From: a phage
Sequence record: NC_102531.1
Direction: 5' to 3' (one strand)
DNA length: 64,000 nucleotides
Shown here one piece after another: positions 20,630-33,968 of the stretch (position 1 is its first letter; each line of letters begins with the position of its first letter). The notes under the pieces are model-generated. The model worked only from the letters and a program-made list of their open reading frames with translations. It did not search any database and had not been told where the DNA came from. A program made the translations under genes and the position numbers.

Positions 20630-21478
20630 TTATGCCAGTGCAGCCTCAAAATCTTTCATCATATTTTGGAAAGTTTTTGCCTTACTTAAGGTAACACCGT
20701 ACTCTTTGGCGAAGGTTTGGAGTGCATCTTTTGAACCACTTTTGTCATCTTCGTTGTTAAGAGCTGCGGCCTGCTGTAGTATGGCATCAACATCACTGCG
20801 AGAAGATCTTGATTCTTGTGCCTGTTCAGGATCCTGCTCAGTGCCTTCCTCCGGTGCAGTCGGGCCTTGGGATTCTTCACCACCACCACCAGGTTCAGTA
20901 GGACCTACAGGCGGCTCCGGCTCTGGTTCAGGCGGTGGAGCTATCGTAGAGACCAGTCCAAGATTTACAACCTGAGAACGTTTCTTAGGCCACTCAATGG
21001 TGAAAGTTTGGGTATCTTCTTCATAAACAATGCTGCATTGCTCATCGTTTATGGTCACTTTTTTAGGCATCCCTACAGGGTCCCATAGATGGCCCTCTGC
21101 CACGGAAACTTGGAAAGCCGCATCTACCTCTTTAAACACTGACGGGGTGAGTGTGATATTGACATCCCCGCTTTGCAGTGTTAAAGTGCTTTCATCAAGG
21201 TTCTCTGTGAAGAACAGAAGAATAACACCCATACGGATAGTTGAAATACCAGTATCAATTGGCAGTCCTGTATGTTTTGCAATCTTCTCGAAGAAGTCTA
21301 CAATCGTTCTGCACGGATAGTGAACACTGCCGATAACGAATTCTGTTGGTGGCAGAAGGGCTGATAAGCCAACATTGATTTCTGGGTTATATTGTGCTAA
21401 AAATTGATAAAAACTTAACTGATTGTTGAAAACTCTTAATAGAGGATCATACTCAACTGGGTAGACGGTTCGCTTCAC
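20630..21478 (-). CDS. hypothetical structural protein with Pro/Glu/Gly-rich linker
   Basis: 282 aa; PPPEPEPEPPVGPTEPGGGGEESQGPTAPEEGTEQDPEQ low-complexity region. Confidence 0.3.
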   Translation of the reverse strand: MKRTVYPVEYDPLLRVFNNQLSFYQFLAQYNPEINVGLSALLPPTEFVIGSVHYPCRTIVDFFEKIAKHTGLPIDTGISTIRMGVILLFFTENLDESTLTLQSGDVNITLTPSVFKEVDAAFQVSVAEGHLWDPVGMPKKVTINDEQCSIVYEEDTQTFTIEWPKKRSQVVNLGLVSTIAPPPEPEPEPPVGPTEPGGGGEESQGPTAPEEGTEQDPEQAQESRSSRSDVDAILQQAAALNNEDDKSGSKDALQTFAKEYGVTLSKAKTFQNMMKDFEAALA

Positions 21479-26130: not shown

Positions 26131-27252
26131 TTAGATAAAACGCTTGAACATAGAAGGTGATGAGATTGATGGAATCACACAAGGAAGTGCTACCTCCTCT
26201 TTCTCCAGGAAATTAATCGCAGAAGCTACACAGTCAGCCCAGTCGTCTTTTCTGTTAAATGTTGATCTTTCCCCGTTGAATTTTTCAAGTTCGGTCAGAA
26301 ATGCTTCCAGAGTATCAGGATGGAAACTGGATTTTACAATCCTTACCATTCCTTGTTGGGCAAGATTGGCAAAAGGTGAGAACCTTGTCAGTTTAGACTT
26401 GTTGGAAGGCATTGGGTCTTCTTCAACCCTAAACCCTTCGGCAAGCAAGGATCTGGAGGAGGTTAAGAACTCACTCTTACCTGCCTGACCGGGGTCCACA
26501 GAGAATACGATTATACAATCATCACCATCAAACTGCGCCTGTTTCCTGATGATCACATCTCGTTCACCAGCCTTTTTACAGAACTTACCTTCCAGACCTG
26601 TGGAATACCTCCCGTCATCCACGTTCTCAGGACAATAATCCCCGGACAGGTAATAAAAGCCGTCGCTATCTTTACTTACCTTAACACTGGCGGTAAAGTC
26701 AGGAAATTTATTACCGGAAGTTCTCTCGGTTCCTGCTTTATCCCATGCCCTGCAAGACACTGATCCAAGGGGTACTCTATCGGCATCACGAAGGAAAGAT
26801 CTTTGAAAATAGTTTGCACCCTCAGGCTTTGCAAACCAGTTACCATGGAGAAGCTGAGCTTTTTCAAGCTCGGGCAGACCTTCAAGGAAAGCAAGGTATT
26901 CTGGGTTGTCTCTCAAGCAGACAGGATTATCGAATATTGTTGCGCCTATAAACGAGAATGACAACGGTCTCGGCTTGATCTCTACACCCAGTCCGTTAAC
27001 AGTGGTGTATTTCTCTATCAACTCTTCTTTAGAGTCTCCCCAGATAAATTCACCGTCGCGTCGGATAAAATATCTTTTCTTACCGCATTTCTCCGGATCT
27101 GGATACCCCTCATCGTCCAACCACCACCTAACCAGTTTGGCAAGCATGTGTTCTGAATCGGGGTTACAGCTGATAACCATTCTTGATGGATACTTTGACT
27201 GAGATCGCAGACGAGACATCAGGTAGTCTATCTGCTCCCATTCGAATTGTGT
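26131..27252 (-). CDS. terL: terminase large subunit, exon 2 (nuclease domain)
   Basis: Reading frame open upstream of the annotated Met back to the predicted 3' splice site; joins in frame to exon 1 (…MVCFDEG|TQFEWEQIDYLMSRL…). Confidence 0.6.
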   Translation of the reverse strand, partial: TQFEWEQIDYLMSRLRSQSKYPSRMVISCNPDSEHMLAKLVRWWLDDEGYPDPEKCGKKRYFIRRDGEFIWGDSKEELIEKYTTVNGLGVEIKPRPLSFSFIGATIFDNPVCLRDNPEYLAFLEGLPELEKAQLLHGNWFAKPEGANYFQRSFLRDADRVPLGSVSCRAWDKAGTERTSGNKFPDFTASVKVSKDSDGFYYLSGDYCPENVDDGRYSTGLEGKFCKKAGERDVIIRKQAQFDGDDCIIVFSVDPGQAGKSEFLTSSRSLLAEGFRVEEDPMPSNKSKLTRFSPFANLAQQGMVRIVKSSFHPDTLEAFLTELEKFNGERSTFNRKDDWADCVASAINFLEKEEVALPCVIPSISSPSMFKRFI

Positions 27253-28134
27253 CGTTTATGTTCGGGCAAGGTCGCTAGTCTTGCCCCGCCATTTTCAGGC
27301 AGCTGCATGTCTCCATGCAGACCAGACTATATCTTATGAATGTGTAAATACTCTGCCGCTCTAAGAATAGTTTCCTCATCTTCTTGGAAGAAACCTAAAG
27401 CTCTGTTGCATTTATCACAAAGCAACCCTCTTACAGCACCAGTTTTATGGTCATGATCAACACAAAAGAAATCTCTGTACCCTTGCATCCTATACTCATT
27501 AAGAGATATTCTACAAATGGCACACTTATGATCTTGATCTGAGAGTAGACGATAGTATTCATCTTTTGTTATGTGAAATTTCTTCTCAATCTGATAAAAC
27601 TTTTCACACATCTTACACCTGTTCGTAACCAGATATACTTTACCATAGTCACGTTTTGTGTAAAAACTATCAGCGAGCATACTTTCATGACAAGATTTGC
27701 ATTCAAAAAGTTCACCTTTCTTCAGCAAGTCTTGAATAAACAATGCTGCGTCATCTCTCTTAACCATATTTTTATTTTTACGAGATCCACCCTTCCTGTA
27801 GTACATATAGCATTCCTTGCATGTACCTGAGTATCCATCCTTGCTCTTAGATGATAAAAAGAAATCATCAATAGGCAGAACTCTTTGGCAATCCATACAT
27901 TTTTAGTATTACACATTCACCCTCCCGTTTCGAATCGCTTGATTCTACGTCTTTCGACTAGTCGTTGAACGTTCATCCTCTCGGATGCTTCGCTGCGGAT
28001 TATCTAAATTAACACACTGTTACCCTACCTTCGATCTCTCTTCGAAGCCTCTATTATGTTACCATAACAGGTTGGTGGTGTCAATAATAAAGATTTCCCC
28101 GCAATTAGGGAGGTTTTACGAGAGCTACAAATTA
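27253..28134 (-). mobile_element. group I self-splicing intron carrying an HNH homing endonuclease gene, inserted in the terminase large subunit gene
   Basis: Exon 1 ends GGU followed by in-frame UAA; minus strand contains UAAUUGCGGGGAAA (P4-like), GUUCAACGACUAGUC (R/P7 5' strand) and AAGAUAUAGUC (S/P7 3' strand) with GACUA/UAGUC complementarity; internal ORF 27327..27896. Confidence 0.7.
27327..27896 (-). CDS. intron-encoded HNH / Endonuclease VII-like homing endonuclease
   Basis: 189 aa; Cys-rich N-terminus with CxxC pairs; C-terminal CVDHDHKTGAVRGLLCDKCNRALG matches the T4 EndoVII-type His-Me finger; stop codon lies inside the intron S element. Confidence 0.7.
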   Translation of the reverse strand: MDCQRVLPIDDFFLSSKSKDGYSGTCKECYMYYRKGGSRKNKNMVKRDDAALFIQDLLKKGELFECKSCHESMLADSFYTKRDYGKVYLVTNRCKMCEKFYQIEKKFHITKDEYYRLLSDQDHKCAICRISLNEYRMQGYRDFFCVDHDHKTGAVRGLLCDKCNRALGFFQEDEETILRAAEYLHIHKI

Positions 28135-28560
28135 ACCCTCATCGAAGCAAACCATGGTGTACTCAAGACCCTGATGGTTAAGCTTATCTTGCACATACTC
28201 CATATGGCAGTATTTTACAACAGCTCCCTTTTTGCTTCTATCCCACTTACCAGTGTTCGGATCAAACCGTGGAAAAATGAACTTATGATCCTTCTCTCTG
28301 AACTTTGGCTTAATGTTTTCAGGCAGATCACTATAAATAGCTACTGCTTTAGGCCATAGTCCACCCTCACCTTCCAACTGTGGGGTTGTTCTTCGGAACA
28401 TAACCACAGAGCTGTGTGGGTCATCAATAATTTTAAGTGGCATCAACTGCAAGAGGAACGACTTGCCAGACCCTGCGGCACCGCCGATTACCAAGATATC
28501 TGCATCGTTTTCGAGGATCATCTTCTGCTTTTCAGAACACGGTCCGTAAATCTTAGACAT
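28135..28560 (-). CDS. terL: terminase large subunit, exon 1 (ATPase domain)
   Basis: Walker A VIGGAAGSGKS, Walker B MVCFDE; ORF ends with stop right after the predicted 5' splice site. Confidence 0.8.
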
Positions 28561-29663: not shown

Positions 29664-29740
29664 TGGTCTCCACGGAGTGATTCGAACACTCGACCTCCTG
29701 ATCCCAAATCAGGCGCTCTACCAAGCTGAGCTACGCGGAG
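29664..29740 (-). tRNA. tRNA-Pro (anticodon UGG)
   Basis: Manual fold: 7 bp acceptor, D arm, anticodon stem CCUGA/UCAGG with loop UUUGGGA, T loop GTTCGAATC, encoded CCA. Confidence 0.75.
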
Positions 29741-29751
29741 TATTTACTATT

Positions 29752-29826
29752 TGGTGGCCCTGGGTGGAATTGAACCACCGTCTGGCGATTATGAGTCGCT
29801 TGCTTGAACCTTCCAGCTACAGGGCC
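29752..29826 (-). tRNA. tRNA-Met (anticodon CAU; initiator/elongator/Ile2 not distinguished)
   Basis: Manual fold: acceptor GGCCCUG/CAGGGCC, anticodon loop CUCAUAA, T loop GGTTCAATTCC, encoded CCA. Confidence 0.7.
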
Positions 29827-29827
29827 T

Positions 29828-29903
29828 TGGTGCTGATGGCAGGACTTGAACCTACAACCTATTGATTACAAATCAATTGCACTACCGATTGTGCTACATC
29901 AGC
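29828..29903 (-). tRNA. tRNA-Thr (anticodon UGU)
   Basis: Manual fold: acceptor GCUGAUG/CAUCAGC, D arm GCAC/GUGC, anticodon stem AUUGA/UCAAU with loop UUUGUAA, encoded CCA. Confidence 0.75.
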
Positions 29904-29908
29904 AAAAA

Positions 29909-30007
29909 GGTGCTAGGTGATGGAATCGAACCACCTATGTATTCAACGACTACCTCGTCTATTTTCAGGATTAAAAATCCTCGCCCTTGCCAAAGGGCTT
30001 ACCTAGC
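29909..30007 (-). tRNA. aberrant tRNA-like element (anticodon unresolved; possible UUU loop)
   Basis: Perfect 7 bp acceptor (GCUAGGU/ACCUAGC), D arm GCCC/GGGC and T arm GGUGG-UUCGAUU-CCAUC, but ~99 nt long, anticodon region is a palindrome GGAUUUUUAAUCC, ~30 nt extra arm, 3' end ACCU rather than CCA. Confidence 0.35.
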
Positions 30008-30105
30008 TCAGTATGTTGACCATGTTGCTAGTCGGCGATGACGACTGTAACATTTGATAATCCGGTTCTGCTTCCGGCTTTCGCTTAATTACAAGGTCAA
30101 CAATG

Positions 30106-30196
30106 TGGCGGAGAGTAATGGAATCGAACCATCATCGAGTCATACCCAACGGGACGGTTTTCAAGACCGCTTGAGCACCATTGCTCCCTACCCTCC
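30106..30196 (-). tRNA. tRNA-Ser (anticodon UGA)
   Basis: Manual fold: type II tRNA, acceptor GGAGGGU/ACUCUCC, anticodon stem GCGGU/ACCGU with loop CUUGAAA, long variable arm, encoded GCCA. Confidence 0.75.
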
Positions 30197-30310
30197 TTTA
30201 TAAATTATACTGATAATGACACTGATTTTCGAGCAGTTAGTGACTAGTATAAACGACGATAAATATCAATGCCATTATCTGTATTATTTATGCATCTAAA
30301 AATATAAATT

Positions 30311-30397
30311 TGGTGGGGAGTGGTGGAGTCGAACCACCCGAGTCGCAATGACAATAGATTTACAGTCTACACCGCTACCTCTACGGGATAACTCCCC
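30311..30397 (-). tRNA. tRNA-Tyr (anticodon GUA)
   Basis: Manual fold: type II tRNA, acceptor GGGGAGU/ACUCCCC, anticodon stem GUAGA/UCUAU with loop CUGUAAA, T arm GGUGG-UUCGACU-CCACC, encoded CCA. Confidence 0.75.
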
Positions 30398-30401
30398 AAT
30401 T

Positions 30402-30476
30402 TGGCACCCCGTACTGGACTCGAACCAGTGTCAACGGCTTAGAAGGCCGCTGCTTTATCCACTAAGCTAACAGGGC
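30402..30476 (-). tRNA. tRNA-Arg (anticodon UCU)
   Basis: Manual fold: acceptor GCCCUGU/ACGGGGU (two G-U pairs), D arm GCUU/AAGC, anticodon stem GCGGC/GCCGU with loop CUUCUAA, encoded CCA. Confidence 0.7.
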
Positions 30477-31576: not shown

Positions 31577-31765
31577 TCAACAGATTCCGGCCTTATCTCG
31601 CCTGTCTGCGTATTCTTTAATCGCAACCTCATCTGCATTAGTGACTAAATCTTCAAAGTAATTCTCAAGCTCCTCGTCAATGTCAGGAGACCAGCTCTTT
31701 TTCCTGTCAGTGTGAATCGCAGACTTGTTAAACTTATTACAGTTCTTTGCTACCGGATTGTTCAT
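31577..31765 (-). CDS. hypothetical protein
   Basis: 62 aa ORF. Confidence 0.25.
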   Translation of the reverse strand: MNNPVAKNCNKFNKSAIHTDRKKSWSPDIDEELENYFEDLVTNADEVAIKEYADRRDKAGIC

Positions 31766-31776
31766 TAATCACCCCC

Positions 31777-32355
31777 TCATCGTTCACAGTAAATCTTATT
31801 TAACATTACCTCATCATTTGCAGAAAGGATATCTAGATATGCATCACCAAATCTACCTGCAACAACCTCTGCATGATACATCACTTCGTTAATATCGTCA
31901 AGAGTGATAACCGGATGACCGTATCTCTCTGAGTATTGTCTCAGAGTGCGATGTAGAGAGTCGTCATCATAGGAAGACTTTTTAATATCACAAACACGAC
32001 GAATAGCCTTGATGTCGAAAAACCCTGTACGATACCAACCAAGAAAAAGGTTTCGTACAGTGTCAACACCTACATCAACACTATCAAGAACCTTATCTAC
32101 AAGATAGCTGTCATCCTTTGGACCTGCTTCCTTAGTGCGAATGTAGTTGCCATCTTTTCCAGGCGACATCTCCTTCTCATCCCCAACCTGCATGCCATCA
32201 TTTGGCGGTGTTAGCCACTTATCCGGATGCTTACGATCACGAGCGTTAGAATGATTACGCTGGAAACCGGGCTTCCACTTGAAAGTTTTCTCCATCTGTT
32301 CTTCATTCTGATAACGTTTTGCAATCTTTTCACGGTCATCTTTGCGTGAACCCAT
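31777..32355 (-). CDS. hypothetical protein
   Basis: 192 aa ORF downstream of the long intergenic region. Confidence 0.35.
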   Translation of the reverse strand: MGSRKDDREKIAKRYQNEEQMEKTFKWKPGFQRNHSNARDRKHPDKWLTPPNDGMQVGDEKEMSPGKDGNYIRTKEAGPKDDSYLVDKVLDSVDVGVDTVRNLFLGWYRTGFFDIKAIRRVCDIKKSSYDDDSLHRTLRQYSERYGHPVITLDDINEVMYHAEVVAGRFGDAYLDILSANDEVMLNKIYCER

Positions 32356-32858
32356 AGCTGCCTCCTCTTCAAGTTATAGAAAAACTCACTGTATCGCTTT
32401 GTAACGAGCTTTTCTATCAAACTGGTGCGATTGCATTACCTGGTATAGTTTATATAGCTGTGGAGCGATTTAGGGGCCTTCTTGTCAGTTTCCACACATA
32501 AACTTCATCCAAGCTCGCGCGGGAGACTCTCAACCGACTCCTTACGGCGCTGGCAAGCTTTCGTCGGTGGTCCACATCAGTGCTAGGCCTTTGGCCTGCG
32601 CTATCGCTTCGCTCCCACACATGTTAACAGACCTGCATGTATGAACTTCTGTTATTGTGTGCACCAAGGAGGCCCGGCATCTCGCCCCTCGTAGGCGAGT
32701 GCCAATGAAGGGCCGACACTGCCCATAGTAAGTAATAAATTTAAAACATGGTACTTAGGATCTAGTATATTCTACATAAGTTAAGTATATGTACTTAGTA
32801 CCATAAGTACTAGATCTTTTATTTTTTATTATTTAGTTATTTTAGTTATATTCTTTAT

Positions 32859-32941
32859 GTGTCCGTATCACGGACAGTTAGTGTCCGTATTACGGGCAGA
32901 TGTGTCCGCGTGACGGACAGTAGTGTCCGTATCACGGACAG
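32859..32941. repeat. four tandem palindromic 19-mers (iteron/operator-like array)
   Basis: GTGTCCGTATCACGGACAG x4 (variants ...TATTACGGGCAG, ...GCGTGACGGACAG) at 21-22 bp spacing; each unit is an inverted repeat TGTCCGT-N3-ACGGACA; AT-rich tract immediately upstream. Confidence 0.7.
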
Positions 32942-33015
32942 TTAATAGTATCCGTTCCATGGCGAACATAAAACATACGAATCCTTATAGTACAGATATT
33001 TAAGTTTTTACTGGT

Positions 33016-33366
33016 CTAACCAGTTGTTGACATCCGAATAACTTCTTCTGGTGGCAAAACTTTGGAAAATGTGCATCTTTTACCTCTCCCTTGTGTGGAT
33101 GTTTCAACCACTCCTGCACATTCTAAAGTTTTAACGCACGCTGCTGCTTTTGTTTTCTTTATCCCAACATCTGCTGCAATTTTCCTTGTGCTTGGTGTGA
33201 AGCGTGAATTTCCTCCAAGCTTATACCAGTTGTGCAGGTAGCAGTATACGATCTTGTCATACAAGTCAAGAACAACAACCTCCCCAGTTGTGTCATTCAA
33301 AACTTTTGACATAGATAGTATTTCAAGGGGGACTTTAAGATATAGCAGCTTATCCCCATCTTTCAT
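33016..33366 (-). CDS. putative helix-turn-helix DNA-binding protein
   Basis: 116 aa; C-terminal segment STRKIAADVGIKKTKAAACVKTLECAGVV resembles an HTH; sits next to the iteron-like array. Confidence 0.35.
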   Translation of the reverse strand: MKDGDKLLYLKVPLEILSMSKVLNDTTGEVVVLDLYDKIVYCYLHNWYKLGGNSRFTPSTRKIAADVGIKKTKAAACVKTLECAGVVETSTQGRGKRCTFSKVLPPEEVIRMSTTG

Positions 33367-33413
33367 ATCTCCTGATTCTCCTTGTGTGGCAATTTTCTTT
33401 AAAATAGCAGGGA

Positions 33414-33968
33414 TTACTCCCTGCTGTCAATATCAAAACTCATTGCAATACGGTATGCCTCTTCTAATGGTAAGAGTCTCCCCCACACATCCCAACCGAC
33501 ATCAAGCTGCCTGCCAAACAACTGTTGTGTGGTTCCGTGAGCATGACCGAACAGTTGGACTGATCCGTGAGGCTTTCTGTTCCACTTTGCAAACTGGTAA
33601 TGGCTCATACAGATCAAATTCTTGTTGTGGCGAAGCTCGTAATAATCTACAACCTCATGACCGAACTCTTTCATAATTCTGACAGTCGTCCTTGTGTCAT
33701 GGTTGCCACGAACAAGAATAATATGTCCGTTCAACATATTTAGAATATCTGGAAGTAAGTTGTTGATATTCTTATCATTAGTGCACGCAATATCTCCCAA
33801 GTGGAACACAGTGTCTGCAGGTGACACAACAGAGTTCCACTCGGCGATGATTCCTGCATTCATACTGTCAAGATTACGATTATACTGAGATCTGTGTTTT
33901 TGACATGAATCAAACTCCATGACCCGCTGGTGGAGAAAGTGTGTGTCGCTTGTTACAAAGTATTTCAT
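33414..33968 (-). CDS. calcineurin-like metallophosphoesterase (candidate RNA 3'-phosphatase, Pnkp-like)
   Basis: Signature motifs SDTH, GDIA, GNHD, GHAH in order; likely start at MKYFVTSDTHF (ORF track 33414..34073 extends into the kinase gene). Confidence 0.6.
   Translation of the reverse strand: MKYFVTSDTHFLHQRVMEFDSCQKHRSQYNRNLDSMNAGIIAEWNSVVSPADTVFHLGDIACTNDKNINNLLPDILNMLNGHIILVRGNHDTRTTVRIMKEFGHEVVDYYELRHNKNLICMSHYQFAKWNRKPHGSVQLFGHAHGTTQQLFGRQLDVGWDVWGRLLPLEEAYRIAMSFDIDSRE

Follow-up and report, generated by a model that had tools for sequence, protein, structure and literature searches.

A conserved hairpin element shared by rV5-like phages and satellite-like plasmids: a candidate RNA or single-stranded DNA signal

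Introduction

Folded non-coding signals have been described in plasmids, in phages and in their satellites. The ssi signals, such as ssiA and ssiB of RSF1010 and those of G4-type origins, are GC-rich hairpins of replication origins whose loop or foot is read by primase in a strand-specific manner. The CI, c4, put and nut RNAs act on transcription of the same or a partner genome, and some are processed from the transcript. For satellites, a cos or pac site shared with the helper is classical, as in P4 and P2. This article concerns a conserved, structured non-coding element in the Vequintavirus sequence NC_102531.1, which was analyzed as one stretch of 64,000 nucleotides (the window) and in which the element occupies positions 32505..32719 on the minus strand. 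Compensating mutations in its stems, together with the recurrence of its core in satellite-like plasmids, indicate that this hairpin element is a functional RNA or single-stranded DNA (ssDNA) signal of an undescribed family, as judged from sequence comparison.

The window represents an rV5-like coliphage, a myophage. Its segment 32350–33020 is 99.9% identical to Escherichia phage JLBYU08 and matches 118 phage records at 90–99.9% identity, every one of them a Vequintavirus.

Structure and covariation of the element

The limits of the element are set by homology and by low variability. Read along the minus strand, it consists of a hairpin, H1, followed by a variable arm, a middle part and Domain B. 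In the divergent phages L029 and L032, and in the satellite plasmid L030, homology begins exactly at G[T/G]GTCGGCCC, which is position 32719 of the window. Here the unpaired sequence G[U/G]GUC (32715..32719, minus strand) forms the 5′ foot of H1; its G1, G3, U4 and C5 are invariant in all lineages, and the bases just upstream of it are hypervariable. The foot resembles what we take to be T7-type primase sites (GTGTC/GGGTC), as a candidate likeness only.

H1 (32671..32714, minus strand) is a bulged hairpin of 15 bp, with 99.2% of cells paired. It is made up of a GGCCC/GGGCC outer stem, a 6-nt bulge (UUCAWU), a 10-bp inner stem with one bulged A, and a loop of 7–8 nt (UAYRARG). Two of the 15 pairs are changed on both sides in satellite L030, from G-C to U-A each time, and the remaining substitutions in all lineages fall in the loop or the bulge. 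The minimum free energy (MFE) z score of H1 is −2.9 on the minus and −3.7 on the plus strand, none of 200 shuffles being as stable.

The variable arm, H2 (32611..32663, minus strand; CACACA...UGUGUG), ends in the first UGUGUGGG repeat (32614–32621). An in-register deletion of 18 nt (32641–32658) in rV5 and three relatives removes the tip of H2 and keeps its base, and L029 and L032 have a different 5′ arm. The middle segment (32579..32610, minus strand), AGCGAAGCGAUAGCGCAGGCCAAAGGCCKAGCAC, with its GGCC-AAA-GGCC hairpin, is nearly invariant in the phage lineages; in the satellites other hairpin cassettes are found instead.

Domain B (32513..32578, minus strand) consists of a stem, S1 (32563–32568 with 32533–32538), around 25 invariant nucleotides. 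These (32538–32562; GAAAGCUUGCCAGCGCCG[U/G]AAGGAG) are the same in every phage and plasmid save one loop base: the sole variable base of the loop CC-G[U/G]AA-GG, which is the N of a GNRA tetraloop. A C-UUCG-G loop is present in the satellites. The stem is preceded by a degenerate repeat, UGUGGACC, and CCCGCGCG (32516–32523) comes after it. From phage to plasmid S1 changes from ACCGAC/GUCGGU to GCUGCC/GGCAGC, with 3 of its 6 pairs changed on both sides. It is 100% paired in 14 distinct sequences, the varying pairs being A-U in 7, G-U in 4 and G-C in 3; C-G in 11 and U-A in 3; and A-U in 11 and C-G in 3. The covariation score of S1 was above those of all 500 shuffles (500/500) and of all slid controls, and the pairing and compensation of H1 likewise exceeded shuffled and slid controls. 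The bulged hairpin H1 and the covarying stem of Domain B are accordingly taken, on these alignments, to be the conserved structures of the element.

Past Domain B lies a variable spacer (32440..32504, minus strand), which evolves at a neutral-like rate and holds a third repeat copy, AUGUGUGG (32492–32499). The order of the array is H1, the arm ending in UGUGUGGG, the middle hairpin segment ending in UGUGGACC, Domain B, and AUGUGUGG. The repeat copies are all co-directional, none being inverted, and their spacings of 36–103 nt display no helical phasing. The motif TGTGTGGG is found in six scattered copies in the window vs. 2.0 ± 1.3 expected.

The strand that folds can be read from pair 11-46 of S1, which is A-U in seven, G-U in four and G-C in three distinct sequences. 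Read from the plus strand, the middle state would be C-A, a mismatch, whereas G-U still pairs in the minus sense; the folding strand is therefore the sense of the neighboring genes. The hairpin in the leader of the downstream gene, described below, likewise requires a G-U pair on the minus strand. These G-U intermediates point to the minus-sense strand as the one that folds.

Composition, coding potential and constraint

A first-pass annotation, made from the letters of the sequence and a list of open reading frames (ORFs), had marked 32460–32740 as a GC-rich, hairpin-dense, non-coding island with sharp boundaries, a candidate structured RNA that might be an RNA gene or an acquired element. 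The island is indeed GC-rich, with 54.1% GC compared to 43.5% in the window and 44.0% in the left flank, a level reached by only 0.04% of 281-nt windows; the other such place is inside the capsid gene. The AT-rich tract on its right, 32741–32858, has 20.3% GC. No ORF of 60 or more amino acids lies within the island, the longest having 56. Both hairpins that had been singled out are present, AGGCCTTTGGCCT (the AGGCC hairpin) at 32585–32597 and CTCGCCCCTCGTAGGCGAG (the CTCGCC hairpin) at 32681–32699, and so are the repeats CCACACAT at 32492–32499 and 32615–32622, which are the module-delimiting repeats (UGUGUGG on the minus strand) of the modular array. Hairpin density as such is not above chance in the single sequence: there are 3 perfect hairpins vs. 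1.55 ± 1.39 in dinucleotide shuffles, of which 211 in 1000 have at least 3. Taken singly, the CTCGCC hairpin alone is significant, within the larger H1, and the fifth pair of the AGGCC hairpin exists in the window and one relative, the others having an A-G mismatch. The sharp boundary is real on the right, AT-rich side and not on the left, where some 60–90 nt (about 32440–32505) evolve in a neutral-like manner.

In an alignment of 19 relatives over 1.6 kb, the variable sites of the core are distributed over the three codon phases as 7/9/7, compared to 10/11/42 and 23/15/63 in the flanking genes. The frames of three annotated small ORFs give 11/14/12, 6/3/3 and 5/7/8, with no third-position excess. 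Minus-strand ORFs of 56, 41 and 31 amino acids exist, and in some records they are entered as hypothetical proteins (ORF78 of rV5, 56 amino acids; 31 amino acids in BASEL phages). The Aya lineage and L029 do not keep open the frame that is annotated as ORF78 in rV5 and BASEL phages; in phage 206 a 1-nt deletion breaks it, and 9 of the 9 nucleotide differences between the Domain B of phage and satellite would be non-synonymous in it. No Pfam or PHROG family matched the small ORFs.

In the core (32530–32720) 12% of the sites are variable, vs. ~34% of third codon positions and of the sites in two spacers. The core thus evolves about three times more slowly than neutral sites, which is purifying selection. 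Still tighter constraint is seen in the AT-rich tract (8.5%) and in the conserved leader of the downstream 192-aa gene (32371..32439, minus strand; 8.7% of sites variable), and 32440–32529, with 34% variable sites, changes at the neutral rate. These comparisons support the view that the island core is a non-coding, constrained element, neither a plain promoter region nor a decayed gene.

That something more than a simple promoter region is present, as the first-pass annotation had suggested, is borne out by the lack of three-base periodicity (7/9/7), the 12% of variable sites and the compensatory changes, and comparison with relatives brought out both conservation and covariation. The alternative it had named, a degraded remnant of a protein-coding gene, is contradicted by the absence of codon periodicity and by the broken frames. 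The relatives also give no support to an acquired element: in 118 of 118 Vequintavirus records with the flanking genes the island is present, and its position is unchanged where the adjoining initiator/iteron cassette is swapped. As to a structured non-coding RNA, conservation, lack of coding and compensatory changes in two helices stand; an RNA gene was not shown, since there is no sigma-70-type promoter, intrinsic terminator or Rfam family.

Divergent phages and satellite-like plasmids

In L029, a divergent phage contig, the 192-aa protein encoded downstream of the element is 83% identical, and the winged-helix initiator-like protein, the palindromic repeats and the AT-rich tract upstream are all different. 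Homology with the window, at 81%, runs from exactly GGGTCGGCCC (32719–32710 of the window) through the 192-aa gene. The allelic cassette of L029/L032 type has an initiator-like protein of 143 amino acids and 23-bp palindromic repeats (2234–2394 of L029), and its exchange resembles a swap of specificity.

A blastn search of E. coli genomes and plasmids revealed circular plasmids of 13.2–13.7 kb and a 39.6-kb trimer with two blocks of the island at ~85% identity. They are L030 (NZ_CP020521.1; 13,689 bp), L031 (NZ_CP043822.1; 39,610 bp, three tandem copies) and L073–L075, and further copies were found in the metagenome contigs L033 and L036. Among 5,426 complete E. coli genomes, four are carriers. 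The plasmids encode a major capsid protein of the phage's PHROG family, neck, baseplate-like and tape-measure proteins, a Rep-like winged-helix protein and helix-turn-helix proteins. Their baseplate-like, neck and tape-measure proteins and an 86-aa ORF are 25–50% identical to the phage counterparts, and no terminase, portal or replisome gene (polymerase, helicase, primase) was detected among the 13 proteins scanned. On the strength of this gene content, from which the word satellite is also taken, the plasmids apparently represent a satellite of Vequintavirus, borne on a plasmid, or a mini phage-plasmid, of a kind not described before.

The blocks shared with the phage lie in a non-coding region of ~2.9 kb, downstream of the plasmids' own iterons, and Domain B is 84–85% identical between phage and plasmids. 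At the nucleotide level phage and satellite share this non-coding element and two blocks of 35–36 nt elsewhere, and nothing more. The plasmid Domain B is preceded by hairpin cassettes of 37–90 nt, each closing in a co-directional TGTGTG(T)GGG. These cassettes are present or absent between otherwise alike plasmids, and the iteron sets upstream are unrelated (L030, L031, L033, L036, L073–L075), which suggests frequent recombination at short repeats and exchange of Rep specificity. Most satellites are without H1 and the G[T/G]GTC site and have kept Domain B alone. In the satellites Domain B lies upstream of genes unrelated to the 192-aa gene, with consensus-like promoters, read by eye, in between. 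L028, which represents another phage context, has a 51%-identical homologue of the 192-aa protein and no island upstream of it. Since the element occurs in satellites that lack the 192-aa gene, and is missing from L028 despite the homologue there, it is independent of the downstream gene.

One of the short shared blocks has a setting of its own. The segment 2560–2628 of L030 contains a consensus sigma-70 promoter (TTGACA-17-TATAAT) and, directly behind it, 35 nt with 88% identity to 20780–20814 of the window (plus strand). The stretch is antisense to a 282-aa gene of the phage head-assembly region (20630–21478, minus strand) that adjoins the capsid gene, and promoter and block recur in all three copies of L031. 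It may specify a satellite antisense RNA against a head gene of the helper.

The adjoining origin-like cassette

Immediately upstream of the island, the AT-rich tract of 118 bp (32741..32858) may serve as a DNA unwinding element. It holds two GATC sites, interleaved palindromes and a 13-mer of oriC type, GATCTTTTATTTT (32813–32825); no other site on either strand of the 64 kb matches the consensus of the oriC 13-mer, GATCTNTTNTTTT, perfectly. In the plasmids, three AATAGAT(C) 12-mers stand at the equivalent place. Next to the tract, repeat analysis identified four iterons of 21–22 bp (32859..32944), each with the dyad TGTCCGTATCACGGACA; close relatives have three or four copies, through clean deletions of 21–22 bp, and L029 has another repeat set. 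The iterons are followed by the gene for a winged-helix protein of 116 amino acids (33016..33366, minus strand), which is annotated as a transcriptional regulator or replication initiation protein. It belongs to phrog_12838, 'replication initiation protein' (E 5e-80), with weaker matches to O-like initiators, and Pfam HTH_36 and DUF6945 fall just under their cut-offs.

An initiator-like gene, iterons and an AT-rich tract together can be read as a lambda-like origin, and the cassette is probably a lambda-like replication origin; alternatively, it could represent a repressor and the operators to which it binds. In the window, the cumulative GC skew reaches its minimum at ~34 kb, ~1.5 kb from the cassette; this minimum is confounded because it coincides with a switch in the direction of transcription. 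In rV5, too, the skew minimum is located at the switch of transcription direction, and the origin is undefined, a T7-gp4-like primase/helicase having been reported (PMC3606486).

Searches for known families and further copies

At the gathering thresholds of Rfam 15 only six tRNAs, at 29.7–30.5 kb, pass in the whole window, so that no known family is present in the island, be it a group I or II intron, 6S, RNase P, SRP, C4/CI RNA, T-box, riboswitch, ribozyme or other. At E ≤ 10 the region 32300–33050 gave three spurious sub-threshold matches, none of them centered on the island, and the satellites L030 and L033 gave no family. ARAGORN found seven tRNA genes, all at 29664–30476, and no tRNA or transfer-messenger RNA in the island. 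These results agree with the first-pass annotation, which had seen neither group I intron core motifs nor tRNA T-loop motifs there. Neither of the two hairpins that it named has a T run after it. Enrichment of DnaA-box-like motifs was not observed, blastn found no copy of the island in E. coli chromosomes, and there were no recurrent 8- or 10-mers in the window that would mark a dispersed repeat or phage promoter motif, shared 10-mers being at chance level.

Several candidates were considered and dropped. A standalone small RNA gene was rejected because the scan found no sigma-70-type promoter or intrinsic terminator. The Aya and L029 lineages do not share an extended −10 sequence that was noted by eye (TGgTATAGT, plus strand 32441–32449), and a long-range GGGAGCG/CGCUCC pairing taken from the MFE structure is absent in L029, L032, L038 and L039. 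Compared by eye with the alignments, a tetraloop receptor (CCUAAG/UAUGG), a hammerhead core (CUGAUGA...GAAA), an RfaH ops site, a mimic of the CRISPR I-E repeat, a likeness to domain IV of signal recognition particle RNA and an enrichment of the CsrA motif GGA, were abandoned because they were not conserved or were wrongly arranged. The pseudo-ToxI of the rV5-related phage PhiTE consists of tandem direct repeats of ~36 nt. Such repeats, as of type III antitoxin-like RNAs, are not found in the island, which has no tandem or direct repeat of more than 8 nt.

A covariance model of Domain B, R1, and the pattern of H1 each have one match in the window. In each phage and each satellite unit R1 has a single match, of 91–96 bits, and it has none elsewhere. 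When IMG/VR, JGI metagenomes and GTDB genomes were scanned for patterns, only Vequintavirus contigs, two satellite contigs and chance matches (≤21 bits with R1) came up. The flanking proteins have no homologue beyond the genus in 50,697 phage records, and a search of 5.8 billion proteins added contigs of L028/L029 type only. In the literature no paper was found on an rV5 satellite, origin or non-coding RNA. By these searches the element constitutes an undescribed family, without an Rfam match.

The locus and its neighboring genes

In annotated relatives the order of genes on the minus strand is polynucleotide kinase (PNK), metallophosphoesterase, the 116-aa protein, a gap of 660 bp and the 192-aa protein. 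Beyond the latter gene, on the same strand, are several small genes, the tRNA cluster, a split large terminase gene, and portal and capsid genes. The element is located inside the 660-bp gap between the 116-aa and 192-aa genes, and the neighboring genes are all on the minus strand. The 192-aa protein (31777..32355, minus strand, downstream of the element; phrog_12226) has no assigned function. A sequence search of the PDB gave nothing at E below 0.5, and its AlphaFold model, with a pLDDT of 57, had no match at E below 0.1 in a fold search.

The leader of the 192-aa gene contains a hairpin of 12 bp, with arms at 32376–32387 and 32406–32417, one G-U pair on the minus strand and a z score of −3.1. 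Its 3′ arm is U-rich and ends 12 nt ahead of the ribosome-binding site. The leader segment is common to L029/L032 and absent from the satellites, and its hairpin could act as a translational or attenuation control, separate from the island. A 22-nt motif of the leader, CTGGTGCGATTGCATTACCTGG (32422–32443, plus strand), recurs with 18/20 identity at about 12290–12311 of L030, and in the plasmids it is inverted relative to Domain B. As the motif is asymmetric, its use in both orientations suggests a binding site in double-stranded DNA (dsDNA).

The large terminase gene, ~4 kb downstream of the element on the same strand, is split (26131–27219 and 28132–28560, within 26131–28560), and the insert carries an HNH/endonuclease VII-like ORF (27327–27896). 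Terminase introns have been reported for rV5, in agreement with the split gene found here (PMC3606486). In the tRNA cluster, ARAGORN reported a tRNA-like gene of 99 nt (29909–30007) with a four-base anticodon (atcc); it scores 35.5 bits in Rfam and is annotated 'tRNA-OTHER' in relatives. Eighteen of the GenBank records matched by the locus are titled 'Campylobacter phage' (MG0656xx). These are Vequintavirus genomes, 91–99% identical to the phage of the window, and the three that were opened bear the mark UNVERIFIED; they are probably mislabelled or contaminants.

Possible functions of the element

The reading preferred here, tentatively and at somewhat less than an even chance, is that the element is a co-transcribed structured RNA recognized by a trans-acting factor. 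That RNA rather than ssDNA is the folded molecule, that a trans factor binds it, and what effect follows, are matters that we infer. Having no sigma-70-type promoter or intrinsic terminator of its own, being in the leftward sense of the operon and having no terminator-like site ahead of it, the element would be co-transcribed and fold inside the transcript, which would extend from PNK, the phosphoesterase and the winged-helix protein through the element to the 192-aa gene and on to the tRNAs and terminase. The stem-loop modules H1, H2 and the middle hairpin form an array with (U)GUGUGG(G) repeats between them and Domain B last, and the covarying stem of Domain B presents the 25 invariant nucleotides. 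Invariant loops and repeats would then offer a factor of the phage or the host a sequence-specific platform that may act in processing, regulation or titration whatever gene follows. The 13-kb plasmids would keep Domain B and a variable cassette array in order to engage the same factor. RNA is preferred for its transcribed sense, its GNRA and UUCG loops, its variable hairpins with a repeated short motif, a design of protein-binding RNAs, and its independence from the downstream gene; an ssDNA role at the adjoining origin-like cassette would fit nearly as well.

A number of observations weigh against a co-transcribed RNA. Scans detected no sigma-70-like promoter on either strand of the intergenic region and no intrinsic terminator at 31700–33500 (0 sites), which tells against a terminator of the element's own, and the sequence just upstream of H1 is unrelated among three lineages. 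The island as a whole folds no better than shuffles (z −1.4 on the minus and −1.0 on the plus strand), thermodynamic folding alone misses S1 (z +0.9), and RNAalifold, applied to the phage lineages only, found no compensatory pair. The double changes are, without exception, confined to the satellite lineage, and may therefore reflect few evolutionary events. Position 8-53 of alignment A2 is A-C in five sequences, which would be G-U if the plus strand folded. Loops of 3 nt are found in many hairpins of the satellites; on the opposite strand they read C-GTA-G, a type known for its stability in DNA. The phage, L029/L032 and satellites of at least four iteron types all have iterons, AT-rich tract and element in one order and orientation, a constancy that origin function accounts for more directly.

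An origin-linked ssDNA signal is accordingly the nearest rival, and we regard it as possible though less probable than the RNA. Once the AT-rich tract is opened and a helicase enters the island, the minus-sense strand would fold into H1 and Domain B, and the hairpins and G[T/G]GTC would possibly recruit or position the T7-gp4-like primase-helicase, as ssi signals do in plasmids and small phages. Satellites, which encode no replisome, would retain this signal downstream of iterons of their own and be copied by the replisome of the helper. The compensatory changes demand a single strand, not specifically RNA, and the setting is consistent with an origin: an initiator-like protein (phrog_12838, with weak O-like matches), four dyad-symmetric iterons, a conserved tract of 20% GC with the sole perfect oriC-type 13-mer and two GATC sites, and an order of iterons, tract and element that is kept though initiator/iteron cassettes are swapped. 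The satellites carry a Rep-like gene and iterons, with no polymerase, helicase or primase in the 13 scanned proteins. The skew minimum, ~1.5 kb off, would agree as well, were it not confounded with the switch in transcription, and rV5 has a gp4-like primase/helicase and an undefined origin (PMC3606486). The same iterons may equally be operators of a repressor, however, and DnaA-box-like motifs are not enriched. H1 and G[T/G]GTC, which would be read by the primase, are missing from most satellites, and one or two hairpins suffice for priming, while the arrays reach ~10. GNRA and UUCG loops are typical of RNA, and RNA explains without extra assumption why the folding strand is the transcribed sense.

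Other explanations carry less weight. A cis-regulatory leader of the 192-aa gene, riboswitch- or attenuator-like, which senses a ligand or protein and acts via the hairpin near the ribosome-binding site, is unlikely: satellite Domain B precedes unrelated genes, with consensus-like promoters (by eye) in between, a 192-aa homologue exists without an upstream island, and between the element and the leader hairpin lie 60–90 nt that evolve in a neutral-like manner. That hairpin is conserved and significantly stable, and has its U-rich 3′ arm ahead of the ribosome-binding site, but in the scan it is not terminator-like, and no Rfam riboswitch or leader matches. The element and the 192-aa gene do remain together in L029/L032 despite exchange of the upstream cassette, and covarying stems around invariant junction nucleotides are typical of aptamers. 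Somewhat more doubtful is a pac- or cosB-like packaging site, at which the small terminase would bind the TGTGTGGG repeats and Domain B as dsDNA, and which terminase-less satellites would have copied. The satellites have capsid, neck, baseplate-like and tape-measure proteins and no terminase or portal, their nucleotide sharing with the phage is limited to the element and two blocks of 35–36 nt, and ~4 kb further downstream the same strand carries the large terminase gene; yet compensation in stems is unexpected for a dsDNA binding site, the repeats (36–103 bp apart) have no helical phasing, and TGTGTGGG, with 6 copies vs. 2.0 ± 1.3, is not special genome-wide. Least probable, to the point of being very hard to credit, are small protein genes (ORF78 of rV5, 56 amino acids; the 31-aa ORF of BASEL phages) or a decayed gene remnant. 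ORFs of 56, 41 and 31 amino acids exist, some of them annotated, and the 18-nt indel is a multiple of three, but in a GC-rich stretch of an AT-rich genome long frames stay open by chance. None of the three frames has codon periodicity, frames are broken in relatives, Pfam and PHROG give no match, and every phage-satellite difference is non-synonymous and belongs to a compensatory pair.

Whether the molecule is RNA, as preferred here, or ssDNA, the element might be a 'handshake' module of virulent rV5-like phages and their plasmid satellites, recognized by a factor of the helper, a broader proposal that we put forward as speculative. The satellites would have copied the element behind shuffling cassettes delimited by UGUGUGGG, and would thereby capture or out-compete the replication, packaging or regulatory machinery of the helper. 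The rV5-like phages are widely isolated and are candidates for therapy and biocontrol, and the element is a delimited, constrained structure adjoining the best candidate for their origin. With a core that is near-identical in 13-kb plasmids, there is possibly a satellite-helper system for a virulent myophage, with the element as the shared recognition signal. If confirmed, it would be a new family of structured RNA or DNA and would give a handle on the way in which satellites exploit their helper; 'hypothetical proteins' of the ORF78 type could then be re-annotated in more than 100 phage records.

Comparison with known systems

The hairpins of the element, its strand specificity and its place past iterons and an AT-rich tract are like those of ssi signals, compared by description only. 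An ssi signal, however, is a single hairpin of ~40–100 nt, and the element is a modular array with a 25-nt invariant multiloop. The adjoining cassette has the parts of oriLambda, RK2 oriV and pPS10: a winged-helix initiator, four dyad iterons, an AT-rich tract with a 13-mer and a GC-rich segment. In RK2 oriV and pPS10, in contrast, the GC-rich stretches are short and are not known for covarying hairpins. The initiator-like protein differs from those of iteron origins as well, since it has 116 amino acids, about the size of a lone DNA-binding domain.

With CsrB and RsmZ the element has in common a variable number of hairpins, sequence that is not conserved, a short motif in one orientation, and a copy number that differs among relatives. 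Its motif is (U)GUGUGG(G), not GGA, and GGA is about as frequent as composition predicts (by eye). Unlike in CsrB and RsmZ, several of the repeat copies are predicted to pair with an upstream CCCACA, and there is no Rfam match. The P4 CI RNA and P1 c4 RNA (Rfam C4, RF01695), HK022 put and lambda nut are also structured RNAs in phage or satellite operons, promoter-proximal in position. The element differs from them in size and architecture, matches none of them in Rfam at E ≤ 10, and no complementary targets or terminators were found.

The cos and pac sites shared by P4 and P2, and those of cos-type phage-inducible chromosomal islands, are like the element in being a non-coding block far better conserved than the proteins of helper and satellite, although they act as dsDNA and have no compensatory stem changes. 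As there is no Rfam match, and the nearest analogues are functional and not homologous, the element is best placed as a structured non-coding element of phages that would form a new family. Within this comparison, the putative link to satellites appears to be the newest aspect of the finding.

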